Virus record (IMG/VR): IMGVR_UViG_2671180417_000023
Reading direction: 5' to 3' (one strand)
DNA from: a virus
Taxonomy: Duplodnaviria; Heunggongvirae; Uroviricota; Caudoviricetes
DNA: 3,692 bases
The translations under genes and the position numbers were made by a program. The notes beneath the pieces were generated by a model that ran no database searches, was not told the origin of the DNA, and worked only from the letters and a program-made list of their open reading frames with translations. Shown here one piece after another: positions 1 to 3,692 of this stretch (positions are counted from its first letter, which is position 1; the number at the start of each line of letters is the position of its first letter).

Positions 1-1335
1 CGATGTGTTTACGGGAAAAAAATCGGCCCAGATCCGCGAAATTTTAATCAGCGAGTCAGCTTGGGAAGAAATGACCTGCTTATTCGCACCTTCCCTAACG
101 CTGGCGGCGGAAATATTACCGATCGTGGTGAAGGATTCAAACATGATAAGACATCACTCGCACGAGATGTAGCCACCGGCGTTCTGGCCCGTTCAATGGA
201 TGTGGATATTTATAACCTGCACCCAGCACACGCAAAACGCGTTGAAGAAATCGTGTCAGAGAATAAGCCGCCCTTTTCTGTTTTTCGCGACAAATTTATC
301 GCCATGCCCGGTGGGCTGGATTATTCCCGCGCCATTGTGGTGGCTTCCGTGAAAGAAGCACCAATCGGCATTGAGGCCATCCCGGCACGCGTGACTGAAT
401 ATCTCAACAAAGTGTTGACCGAAACCGATCACGCTAACCCGGATCCGGAAATCGTGGAAATTGCCTGCGGTCGCTCATCAGCACCGATGCCGCAGCGCGG
501 AACAGCAGAAGGAAAACATGGCGATGAAGAAAAGCAACAAACATCGGACACAATGGCTAATGAACAGGCAGCGCCTGAATCAGTGGAAGAAATTCCAGTT
601 AAACATAATGAGGACACGCAATCACTGGAAAATGTCTCATCTGTAGAAACGAAATACCAGGAACTGAGGGAGGAACTCAATAAAGCCAGGGAAAACATCC
701 CCCCAAAAAATCCAGTCGATGCCGACAAATTACTGGCTGCCTCGCGTGGAGAATTCGTTGAAGGCATCAGTAACCCTGCTGATCCGAAGTGGGTGAAGGG
801 GATCCAGACTCGCGACACTGAGGACCAGAATCAGCCCAAAGTGGAACAAATTGCCCCAGAAGCGGGACAAAACAGCCCGGATACGCAACAAAACGGGCCA
901 GAAGAGCAACAGCCAGGGCCAGTAATGCAACAGGAAGTGGAAAAGGTTTGCACCACATGCAGTCAGAACGGTGGCGGCCATTGCCCTGACTGTGGTCCAG
1001 TAATGGGAGATGAAACTTACGCTGAAACTTTTGGAGAAAATGACGCCGCTGATGGAGAAGACTCAGCACAAACTGAGGAGAAGATCATTCAGGAAAACTC
1101 TGTTGATGCCGCTCAGGAGGGCGAAACCGTTGTTCAGAACGAGCCAGGCAGTGATACGTCCGGCGATGACGCCAATTCTGAGCCAGTAACTCTCGACTGG
1201 AAAAGACAGCTCGTGATTGCCGCCGTCTATGGTTTGTGCGCCAACCCCGCATGTATAGCCACAGCGCCAGCAATCCCTGATATCGCCATCATGATTGCCA
1301 ACAGGCTTGAAAATTTCGAAGGTGATAAATCATGA
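1..1335 (+). CDS. Hypothetical phage early protein, 5'-partial (444 aa within window); acidic low-complexity central region with a CxxC-x7-CxxC motif and a hydrophobic C-terminal tail
   Basis: Frame 1 is open from position 1 (no stop in 1..60), so the true start lies upstream of the window; the TTG at 61 is only the first in-window start. 445 uninterrupted codons to TGA at 1333-1335. Same strand as the Red genes, and its stop overlaps the gam ATG (ATGA at 1332-1335). No family recognised by eye. Confidence 0.8.
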
Positions 1336-1628
1336 ATGCCTGGCTTATCCCCGATCGCATTGAAGAGCAGTCATGGGCACGACACTACCAGCAAATTGCC
1401 CGTGAAGAAACTGAAGCTGAGCTGGCAGACGACCTGGAAAAAGGTCTGCCCCAACACCTGTTTGAATCGCTATGCATCGATAATCTGCAACGTCACGGGG
1501 CCAGCAAAAAAGCTATTTCCCGTGCATTTGATGACGATGTCGATTTTCAGGAACGCATGGCAGAACACATCCGCTACATGGCTGAAACCATCGCCCGTCA
1601 CCAAATTAATATTGATTCAGAGGTATAA
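1332..1628 (+). CDS. gam: Host-nuclease (RecBCD) inhibitor Gam, short 98-aa form
   Basis: Translation ([26 protein letters not shown]...LFESLCID...QRHGASKK...[10 protein letters not shown]...DSEV) matches phage lambda GamS along its length as I recall it, with scattered substitutions. AAGGTGA Shine-Dalgarno at 1319-1325, 6 nt before the ATG. An in-frame TAA at 1326-1328 rules out a longer N-terminal (GamL-like) form. Lies immediately upstream of bet, as in lambda. Confidence 0.9.
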
Positions 1629-1633
1629 AACGG

Positions 1634-2419
1634 ATGAGTACAGCACTCGCAACGCTGGCAGGGAAGCTGGCTGAACGTGTCGGCATGGATTCTGTCGACC
1701 CACAGGAACTAATCACCACTCTTCGCCAGACGGCATTTAAAGGTGATGCCAGCGATGCGCAATTTATCGCATTGTTGATCGTCGCCAACCAGTACGGCCT
1801 TAATCCCTGGACGAAAGAAATTTACGCCTTCCCTGACAAGCAGAACGGCATCGTTCCGGTGGTTGGCGTTGATGGCTGGTCCCGCATTATCAATGAAAAC
1901 CAGCAGTTTGATGGCATGGACTTTGAGCAGGACAATGAGTCCTGTACATGCCGGATTTACCGCAAAGATCGCAATCACCCGATCTGCGTTACCGAGTGGA
2001 TGGATGAATGTCGCCGCGCACCATTCAAAACCCGCGAAGGCAGAGAAATCACCGGACCGTGGCAGTCGCATCCCAAACGGATGTTACGGCACAAAGCCAT
2101 GATTCAGTGTGCTCGCCTGGCCTTCGGATTTGCTGGCATCTATGACAAGGATGAAGCCGAGCGTATTGTCGGAAATACTGCATATACTACAGAACGTCAG
2201 CCGGAACGCGACATCACCCCGGTTAACGAAGAAACCATGTCGGAAATTAACGCCCTTCTTACTTCCATGGAAAAAACGTGGGATGACGACCTGTTGCCGC
2301 TCTGTTCCCAGATTTTTCGCCGCAACATTTACACATCTTCAGAACTAACACAGGCTGAAGCTGTGAAGGTTCTTGGATTCCTGAAACAGAAAGTCACAGA
2401 GCAGAAGGTAGCAGCATGA
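1634..2419 (+). CDS. bet: Red-beta single-strand annealing protein (Bet, RecT/Red-beta family)
   Basis: 261-aa translation ([66 protein letters not shown]...) is near-identical to lambda Bet as I recall it, with a few substitutions in the C-terminal third. GAGG at 1620-1623, 10 nt before the ATG. Stop TGA at 2417-2419 overlaps the exo ATG. Confidence 0.97.
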
Positions 2420-3096
2420 CACCGGACATTATCCTGCAACGTACAGGGATCGACGTGAGAGCTGTCGAACAGGGGGATGATGCGTGGCACAAATTACGGC
2501 TCGGCGTCATCACCGCTTCAGAAGTTCACAACGTGATAGCAAAACCCCGCTCAGGAAAGAAATGGCCTGACATGAAAATGTCCTACTTCCACACCCTGCT
2601 GGCTGAGGTTTGCACCGGTGTGGCTCCGGAAGTTAACGCTAAAGCGCTGGCCTGGGGAAAACAGTACGAGAACGACGCCAGAGCCCTCTTTGAGTTCACT
2701 TCCGGCGTGAATGTTACTGAATCCCCGATCATCTATCGCGACGAAAGTATGCGCACCGCCTGCTCTCCCGATGGTTTATGCAGTGACGGCAACGGCCTTG
2801 AACTGAAATGCCCGTTTACCTCCCGGGATTTCATGAAATTCCGGCTCGGTGGTTTCGAGGCCATAAAGTCGGCTTACATGGCCCAGGTGCAGTACAGCAT
2901 GTGGGTGACGCGAAAAGATGCCTGGTACTTTGCCAACTATGACCCGCGTATGAAGCGTGAAGGCCTGCATTATGTCGTGGTCGAACGGGATGAAAAATAC
3001 ATGGAGGTTTTTGACGAAATGGTACCGGAGTTCATCGAAAAAATGGACGAGGCACTGGCTGAAATTGGTTTTGTATTTGGGGAGCAATGGCGATAG
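2416..3096 (+). CDS. exo: Lambda-type 5'-3' dsDNA exonuclease Red-alpha (Exo)
   Basis: 226-aa translation ([68 protein letters not shown]...GFVFGEQWR) is near-identical to lambda exonuclease as I recall it. AAGG at 2405-2408, 7 nt before the ATG. The ATGA overlap with the bet stop matches the lambda arrangement. Confidence 0.97.
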
Positions 3097-3144
3097 CCAG
3101 TAGCAACGAGGTGCAAATGATATGACAATTAAGGAATACTACCG

Positions 3145-3396
3145 GTGTTCGTTCTAATCCAGCGCGGGCAGTCTTTCGTCGATGCCAACAACTATCCGGT
3201 TGAAGTCTGCAAAATCACTCTGACGCAGGTAATCTTCCGAAGGCTGGATGGGAGAACCAGAGCCGCTTCAATTAGCGCATTTAATGCAGAATTTGAGCGA
3301 ATCGATCACAACGAACTACACATGATTAAAGCAGAAATTGAGAAGGAAAAGCATATTGCCAGCCTTCGCAAAATGCGCCGCACATCAATCAACTGA
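3145..3396 (+). CDS. Hypothetical small protein (83 aa), unknown function, with a basic helical-looking C-terminus
   Basis: ORF with a GTG start at 3145, preceded by AAGGA at 3131-3135 (9-nt spacer) and bounded upstream by an in-frame TAA at 3130-3132. Stop TGA at 3394-3396 is followed directly by an intrinsic terminator. Same strand as the operon. No family recognised; coding status is inferred from position and signals only. Confidence 0.55.
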   Translation: MFVLIQRGQSFVDANNYPVEVCKITLTQVIFRRLDGRTRAASISAFNAEFERIDHNELHMIKAEIEKEKHIASLRKMRRTSIN

Positions 3397-3398
3397 CA

Positions 3399-3418
3399 AC
3401 CGCCTTCGGGCGGTTTTT
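3399..3418 (+). terminator. Rho-independent terminator (GC stem, UUCG tetraloop, U-tract)
   Basis: Sequence aCCGCC-TTCG-GGCGG-TTTTT: a perfect 5-6 bp GC-rich stem around a TTCG loop, then a run of 5 T, starting 3 nt after the ORF83 stop codon. Confidence 0.8.
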
Positions 3419-3449
3419 CGATGATTAAACAATTCAACTGGAGAATAAA

Positions 3450-3692
3450 ATGAACGACATTACAAAAACAAATGAAATCTTGTTAACCAAAGATATTCTG
3501 GAACGATATAAAATTTCACGAAGCACTCTGTATTTCTGGAGTACTCCAGACAGAAAGCCAAAGTCCCTCAGCAAACCATTTCCTAAACCAACAATAAAGG
3601 GAAACCCCAATCGTTGGTGGCTTTCTGATATTCTGGAGTGGGAAAGAAATAATGCTCAGGTTAATGGCGCATCAACTAACCCTTCAAGATAA
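3450..3692 (+). CDS. AlpA/excisionase-family helix-turn-helix DNA-binding protein (putative Xis or prophage regulator)
   Basis: 80-aa ORF with GGAG at 3440-3443, 6 nt before the ATG, and TAA at 3690-3692. The motifs LTKDILERYKISRSTLYFW ... PFPKP ... NRWWLSDILEWERN match the characteristic AlpA/Xis pattern (RSTIYRLI...FPKP...RWxxSEVxEWL). Its position downstream of exo corresponds to the xis side of a lambdoid early-left operon. Confidence 0.7.
   Translation: MNDITKTNEILLTKDILERYKISRSTLYFWSTPDRKPKSLSKPFPKPTIKGNPNRWWLSDILEWERNNAQVNGASTNPSR

Follow-up and report, generated by a model that had tools for sequence, protein, structure and literature searches.

A DUF4222-family gene related to rgdR in the exo-xis slot of a lambdoid prophage

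The DNA analysed here (the window: one stretch of 3,692 nucleotides from IMG/VR record IMGVR_UViG_2671180417_000023) is the leftward early region of a lambdoid prophage. Its features are collected in Table 1; exo, the open reading frame under study (the ORF) and an excisionase-like gene follow one another in this order, all on the + strand. A first-pass annotation, made from the letters and a list of reading frames, had described the ORF as a small gene directly downstream of exo, and this placement was borne out, with only 48 nt between the end of exo (position 3096) and the GTG. The downstream neighbour was also matched by the NCBIfam model Xis_Gifsy_1 (4e-7), under that model's cut-off.

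From position 95 to 3692 the window agrees, at 100% identity, with a prophage that E. coli ML35 carries inserted beside sapC, and the ML35 integrase gene lies on the opposite strand, just past the window's end. In ML35 the excisionase-like and integrase genes (L003:15356-16791) are convergent and overlap at their 3' ends by 37 nt, whereas xis and int of lambda are co-directional. Bases 1-94 of the window match neither the ML35 prophage nor contig L024 of IMG/VR, a near-identical relative; over these bases the two are alike. The window's source therefore has a junction, mosaic or from assembly, within its RecE-family gene. The RecE-family gene of the window (L003:11169-13241 in ML35) immediately precedes a complete set of gam, bet and exo, with an overlap into gam, so that two different recombination exonucleases are encoded in one operon.

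Table 1. Features of the window, with positions counted from its first letter.
Feature	Position	Strand	Basis
RecE-family gene, 3' part	61-1335		PHROG 607 match, 9e-129
gam	1332-1628		Directly upstream of bet
bet	1634-2419		Between gam and exo
exo, lambda-type exonuclease, upstream neighbour of the ORF	2416-3096	+	Pfam YqaJ 4e-30; RefSeq 'lambda exonuclease family protein'
Mobile module: ribosome-binding site, gene and hairpin	3117-3418	+	Common to phages with different flanks
Shine-Dalgarno-like AAGGA, 9 nt before the GTG	3131-3135	+	Read from the sequence
CDS assigned to the DUF4222/RgdR family, 83 aa, GTG start, TGA stop (3394-3396)	3145-3396	+	ORF list, Pfam PF13973, PHROG 285, RefSeq
R7-G8-Q9 codons, counterpart of the RgdR RGD (residues 20-22)	3163-3171	+	MAFFT and hhalign
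Predicted SH3/Tudor-like beta-barrel, residues 10-53	3172-3303	+	AlphaFold2 model
Predicted long basic C-terminal helix, residues 55-82	3307-3390	+	AlphaFold2 model
Intrinsic-terminator-like hairpin, 7-bp stem, TTCG loop, T-run	3398-3418	+	RNA fold
Excisionase-like HTH protein, 80 aa, downstream neighbour	3450-3692	+	PHROG 1553 excisionase 4.5e-26

The ORF encodes a protein of 9.7 kDa with a pI of 9.73. The GTG start (position 3145) and the reasonable ribosome-binding site (AAGGA) of the first reading were retained; the AAGGA is also kept in the copies of the Stx2a phage, TL-2011c and POCJ13. Homologues from other genera, at 35-53% identity, have ATG at the aligned start codon, which supports the GTG as the true start, and distant homologues carry purine-rich, ribosome-binding-site-like stretches at the same distance before the aligned ATG. 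Fifty-one close copies taken from phage and viral-contig collections collapsed to 15 distinct DNAs, every one intact with a GTG start. Across the 15 distinct alleles pN/pS was 0.14 in the frame of the ORF vs 1.2 and 2.8 in the other two frames, and the variable sites were distributed over the three codon positions as 10/8/29. The ORF is a real conserved gene under purifying selection. Loss of the frame in related phages had been named beforehand as the observation that would count against a gene; the frame was kept in all 51 close copies and thus in nearly every copy seen, the exception being a further one, in a Stx2a lineage.

In that group of Stx2a phages (Stx2a_JNE082642 and its relatives; L074:2455-2700) a deletion of 11 nt after codon 16 shifts the frame and brings in early stops. 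To judge from the aligned sequence, an in-frame ATG just before the deletion would allow at most an N-terminally truncated product that lacks the RGQ residues. A related copy in Stx2a_1447 is annotated as a pseudogene. As the frameshifted allele is maintained in one lineage of Stx2a phages, that lineage can dispense with the gene.

Directly 3' of the TGA lie the hairpin letters AACCGCC-TTCG-GGCGGTT (3398-3415), with a T-run to 3418. The computed fold has an energy of -15.6 kcal/mol (z = -3.8), and none of 200 shuffles folded as well (0/200). The hairpin was missed by a simple consensus terminator scan, probably because the stem takes up two T's. The strong terminator named in the first-pass annotation thus stands as to hairpin and T-run; 'strong' is plausible as judged from the fold. 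The hairpin is invariant across four phage lineages and similarity stops right after the T-run: matches in Stx phages begin at about 3117 and end at 3418, where most E. coli matches also end, and the stretch so delimited has different flanks in different phages. A promoter scan of the + strand between 2900 and 3145 found no sigma-70-like site, and from this we infer co-transcription of the ORF with the Red genes. Two other descriptions of the stretch were considered and set aside. A moron would consist of its own promoter, gene and terminator; the terminator-like hairpin is present and the promoter was not found. An RNA element instead of, or beside, the gene was sought in Rfam, which returned no match in 3000-3692 at E <= 1.

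The translated ORF was matched by the Pfam family DUF4222 (PF13973) (56 bits, where the cut-off is 27; E 2.8e-15; residues 4-54 aligned to positions 2-53 of a 53-position profile) and by PHROG 285 over its whole length (E 8e-34; residues 1-83 on profile positions 1-82 of 83). The identical ML35 gene carries the RefSeq name 'DUF4222 domain-containing protein' (WP_001563186.1), and the homologues listed carry PF13973 and the same name. By these sequence comparisons the product belongs to the catalogued DUF4222 family, as a divergent member. The earlier statement that the protein has no recognisable motif gave way to the clear Pfam and PHROG matches; nor is the ORF an uncharacterised orphan, its family being catalogued, named in RefSeq and provided with a characterised member, RgdR.

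A profile search gathered 822 homologue clusters at 90% identity, and the matches listed come from many genera of the Enterobacteriaceae. Of 5426 complete E. coli genomes, 221 carry the allele group of the window, in every case chromosomally. No sequence-related solved structure was found (best E 0.67), and the ORF had no family match in PADLOC at E <= 1 and none in NCBIfam. A 3.4-kb contig binned as a Parachlamydiaceae MAG (JBKEAL010000209.1; L019) carries a TraR gene of enterobacterial type and a DUF4222 gene, and is most likely a mis-binned or contaminating contig.

RgdR (ECs1581), the only DUF4222 protein with characterisation that a DUF4222 literature search turned up, is encoded on O-island 51 / Sp7 of E. 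coli O157:H7 Sakai (Flockhart et al. 2012; PMC3378721). This element was later recognised as a PICI-type satellite. The RgdR sequence (99 aa) was extracted from the Sakai genome. It scored 82 bits on the Pfam DUF4222 model, as compared with 56 for the window protein. Pairwise BLASTP gave no alignment between the two proteins, the identity of which is about 15-19%, and the relationship is visible at the profile level only: with hhalign, the profile of 39 homologues was aligned to RgdR with a probability of 83% (E 8.8e-6) and with RGQ placed on RGD. R7, G8 and Q9 are each conserved in at least 90% of the 39 homologues.

RgdR turns on the LEE1 promoter with or without Ler, and thereby type III secretion; it also lowers motility and increases Congo-red binding (PMC3378721). 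Exchange of the arginine in its RGD motif (R20C) abolishes the activation of type III secretion, and its binding to DNA is weak and non-specific, an inactive variant failing to shift DNA (PMC3378721). These phenotypes came largely from plasmid expression (PMC3378721). In Sakai Sp7, the 4-nt overlap of rgdR (L004:23305-23604) with the primase gene ECs1582 (23601-25733) suggests that its translation is coupled to that of replication functions.

The first-pass annotation had proposed an accessory gene to be checked for conservation and synteny, and the exo-xis slot proved to be common to several lambdoid phages. The same slot is occupied in Phi24B, phage 21, JLK-2012 and TL-2011c. POCJ13 and PhiR5_2 share the order exo, DUF4222, int with the window, and in these three the DUF4222 gene is the sole gene between exo and the integration module. 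The constant trait is that the DUF4222 gene is last or near-last before xis/int, with 0-2 small ORFs between; its constant neighbour is xis/int and not exo, except that in PICIs it does not adjoin int. The upstream neighbour varies (exo, DUF551, TraR/DksA or, in TL-2011c, a hypothetical ORF after a DUF1627 gene). The excisionases downstream differ from one element to another, and the integrases, found on either strand, represent at least four arm-binding types.

In POCJ13 (L002:~5340-5570) and the Klebsiella phage ST101-KPC2phi6.1 (L072:3753-4088), whose records have no xis annotated, unannotated ORFs of excisionase-type HTH proteins separate DUF4222 from int. The idea that DUF4222 is itself the missing excisionase was rejected on account of such ORFs. 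In one IMG/VR contig (L030:4306-5320) the excisionase-like gene downstream of DUF4222 is broken up into two matches with about 700 nt between them, which suggests an insertion or a recombination junction.

In 16 of 18 distant genome loci, a gene of the TraR/DksA family lies 0-1.2 kb upstream of DUF4222 on the same strand. Phage 21, JLK-2012 and a Klebsiella phage are arranged likewise, and in the Klebsiella phage there is a 1-nt overlap between the two genes. TraR and DUF4222 are also naturally joined in frame, as a fusion protein of 153 aa (P0151) encoded on at least 10 contigs that stem from independent runs of sequencing. At three sites of the fusion (L076:916-1377, L077:831-1292 and L078:448-909) the order is NinX, fusion, DUF1233 excisionase, integrase. 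RNA polymerase is bound directly by TraR homologues, lambda Orf73 among them, and host transcription is thereby reprogrammed without binding to DNA (PMC9239242). The TraR link is the best independent hint that DUF4222 acts on the transcription machinery; the hint loses weight because the exo-xis region is home to both genes and each is also found without the other. The window has DUF4222 without TraR between exo and xis, and lambda has TraR without DUF4222.

The structure of the protein was predicted with AlphaFold2 from a 39-sequence alignment (mean pLDDT 93.3; pTM 0.77). In the model, strands at residues 10-12, 18-24, 28-33, 38-42 and 51-53 and a short helix at 43-49 are arranged as a barrel, which is followed by a long helix. 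The basic, helix-prone C-terminus noted from the letters is borne out by the model as one predicted helix (55-82); the C-terminal segment (residues 55-83) has 7 K/R vs 4 D/E and a pI of 9.99. Within the helix E57, I61, E66, L74 and R75 are invariant among the 39 homologues, and H70 is conserved in at least 90% of them.

Foldseek searches of the PDB and of the viral models of BFVD gave no match with E <= 0.001. The top Foldseek ranks were barrels of ribosomal proteins, MscS, TnsB and PWWP domains, and the viral structure library gave weak matches to uncharacterised barrels only. Structural matches of the model include the C-terminal Tudor domains of PcrA and UvrD, one of them solved with an RNA polymerase lobe, as well as CarD, PWWP, Mfd and the KOW domains of NusG/Spt5; other matched barrels sit on helicases or relaxases (UvrD, PcrA, RecD2, Dda, TraI). 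The RNA-polymerase-binding Tudor-like domains (UvrD/PcrA CTD, CarD, Mfd RID, NusG KOW) are 6-15% identical to the window protein and do not hold Foldseek's first ranks. The SH3-like barrel is among the commonest small folds. Since the barrel is generic and the Foldseek order is different, a ranking as 'RNA-polymerase-binding Tudor' depends on the method. The safe statement is that the predicted fold is a small SH3/Tudor-like barrel with a basic helix; the likeness of the model to RNA-polymerase-binding Tudor domains is taken as a lead and not as evidence, that is, as a resemblance and not as membership.

Taken together, the ORF is a catalogued domain-of-unknown-function gene at which nothing structurally or genomically unusual was found, and it is an ordinary accessory gene, probably host-directed as judged by analogy. 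The first-pass annotation had offered host interaction, exclusion and anti-defence as candidate functions. RgdR is a regulator of host gene expression, and by analogy host interaction is favoured for the window gene; exclusion and anti-defence went unsupported, with no PADLOC match and no adjacent defence genes.

The best explanation, which we hold tentatively, is that the ORF encodes a non-enzymatic, RgdR-like modulator of transcription in the early leftward operon, which probably contacts RNA polymerase. The DUF4222 gene is the final one of the early leftward (pL-type) operon ahead of the integration module; it appears to be transcribed together with gam-bet-exo and closed off by its own hairpin, which would act on those transcripts that lack antitermination. 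The protein would work by binding and not by catalysis, as for RgdR; its target would be the transcription machinery of the host, RNA polymerase being the likeliest part of it, and the basic helix would make weak, non-specific contact with DNA. As an outcome, the use of host and phage promoters may be shifted in early lytic development or on induction, and such a shift would resemble the effect attributed to the whole exo-xis region. The inferred parts of this reading are the joint transcription with exo, whatever partner is bound and whatever change in transcription follows.

The RgdR-like modulator was weighed against four other explanations. The protein could be directed at the nucleoid, by non-specific DNA binding or by antagonism of H-NS, and would then de-repress AT-rich acquired genes, including the phage's own; this we consider unlikely. 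Phages do encode inhibitors of H-NS, such as gp5.5 of T7, and the RgdR triad (LEE1 up, motility down, Congo-red binding up) resembles hns mutants, both of which favour such a target. The window protein is basic with a predicted long basic helix, SH3-like barrels include DNA binders (a PWWP domain with ssDNA and TnsB are among the structural matches), and the non-specific shift of DNA by RgdR, lost in the inactive variant, is in line with it (PMC3378721). Nevertheless, no sequence or fold match to a known H-NS binder or nucleoid protein was found, the DNA affinity of RgdR is low, and the TraR fusion points to RNA polymerase and not to DNA. A role as accessory in DNA transactions at the prophage end, in integration and excision or in recombination and replication (for example by bending DNA or recruiting a helicase), has a low probability. 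It would account for the position of the gene 0-2 small ORFs from xis/int and, in the window, directly after gam-bet-exo, for the 4-nt overlap of rgdR with the PICI primase gene, and for the many matched barrels on helicases and relaxases (UvrD, PcrA, RecD2, Dda, TraI). However, the integrases (at least four arm-binding types, either strand) and excisionases beside DUF4222 are so diverse that a specific partner is unlikely, the unannotated excisionase-type ORFs mean that DUF4222 is not the directionality factor, the gene does not adjoin int in PICIs, and its upstream neighbour is variable (exo, DUF551, TraR, or DUF1627 and a hypothetical ORF).

Inhibition of a host immunity protein, or blocking of a competing phage, is likewise quite improbable. 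Small proteins of early operons often have such functions (Gam, from the same operon, inhibits RecBCD), the gene travels between phages as a self-contained module, and it is dispensable in one lineage. Yet neither PADLOC nor NCBIfam gave a match, the PDB and BFVD gave no structural match to a known inhibitor, and the sole studied relative is a regulator; moreover, the N-terminus and the helix are strongly conserved across genera of the Enterobacteriaceae, where we would expect rapid diversification of an anti-defence protein. That the ORF is decaying or functionless and merely hitch-hikes beside a terminator is very improbable. The 11-nt frameshifting deletion of the Stx2a phages and the Stx2a_1447 pseudogene fit such decay, but the low pN/pS (0.14), the third-position bias, the intact frame of all 51 close copies and the spread of 822 homologue clusters with invariant residues over many genera speak against it.

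The RgdR-like modulator can be extended to the whole family, a step that we regard as rather unlikely to be correct. DUF4222 would then be a previously unrecognised class of RNA-polymerase-binding proteins of phages and satellites, docking by the Tudor-like barrel and the R-G-(D/Q) residues and cooperating with secondary-channel binders of the TraR/DksA type. If true, it would explain the pleiotropic, sequence-independent control of virulence and motility by RgdR, and also part of the influence that the exo-xis region has on the lysis-lysogeny decision.

The gene is common, the one allele group in 221/5426 complete E. coli genomes including many Shiga-toxin prophages. In O157:H7, RgdR, the single relative that has been studied, governs both type III secretion and colonisation of the gut. 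Should the lambdoid subfamily also retune transcription in the host, a further lever on host physiology would be in the hands of Stx prophages, one that would also touch the lysis-lysogeny decision governing toxin release. The prophage of the window, with DUF4222 alone in its exo-xis region, is a natural minimal case.

The exo-xis regions of lambda and its relatives were also compared. The first-pass annotation placed dispensable accessory genes in the equivalent stretch of lambda, and these are orf60a, orf63, orf61, ea22, ea8.5 and orf55 (PMC8614690). For the small early proteins of this stretch an action on transcription or RNA polymerase has been proposed (PMC8614690). In operon position and orientation the DUF4222 gene corresponds to lambda ea8.5 and orf55, the last genes before xis. 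These are not homologous to it, however: Ea8.5 matches its own Pfam family, Orf55 matches none, and DUF4222 is hit by neither. Orf55 was considered as a cryptic DUF4222 homologue (beta-strands and a helix, before xis) and rejected, with no Pfam match and an unrelated sequence. No homology of the ORF to lambda orf60a, orf63, orf61, orf73, ea22, ea8.5 or orf55 was found, DUF4222 being its only significant Pfam match, and lambda has no DUF4222 gene, with no wild-type lambda record among the tblastn matches listed.

Related DUF4222 genes are also found in the 75/02 Stx and TL-2011c phages, and copies 33-35% identical to the window protein in HK639 and phage 21, the latter in the same slot. The exo-xis regions of Phi24B, phage 21 and JLK-2012 hold 7-10 further genes, as against DUF4222 alone in the window. 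The protein vb_24B_1c (ADN68390.1) of Phi24B, a model Stx2 phage, is 92% identical over all 83 aa, and its gene lies directly before xis, within the region deleted in the Phi24B exo-xis mutant. Without the whole exo-xis region, Phi24B grows lytically as the wild type, lysogenisation is increased and the expression of several hundred host genes is altered (PMC10789677). The deletion removes about ten genes, and the effects are therefore not assignable to vb_24B_1c; a full-text literature search for 'vb_24B_1c' returned no paper, and the accounts of Phi24B exo-xis that were compared make no mention of it.

The TraR/DksA proteins (TraR of F, Orf73 of lambda) resemble DUF4222 in being small, early and encoded in the same genomic region. 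Their fold and sequence are unrelated, a zinc-finger coiled coil in contrast to a predicted beta-barrel and helix. As compared with RgdR, the window protein is without the 17-residue N-terminal extension, its C-terminal sequence differs, and the exact RGD of RgdR is replaced by RGQ, with R and G kept and D changed to Q. The gene of the window occupies the exo-xis slot of a lambdoid prophage, whereas rgdR lies on a P4-like/PICI satellite just upstream of a primase gene. Both proteins are nevertheless small, at about 80-100 aa, and both come from mobile elements of Enterobacteriaceae; both have an R-G-x motif where the DUF4222 domain begins, and both have a basic C-terminal region after the domain (pI 10.09 for RgdR vs 9.73 for the window protein).
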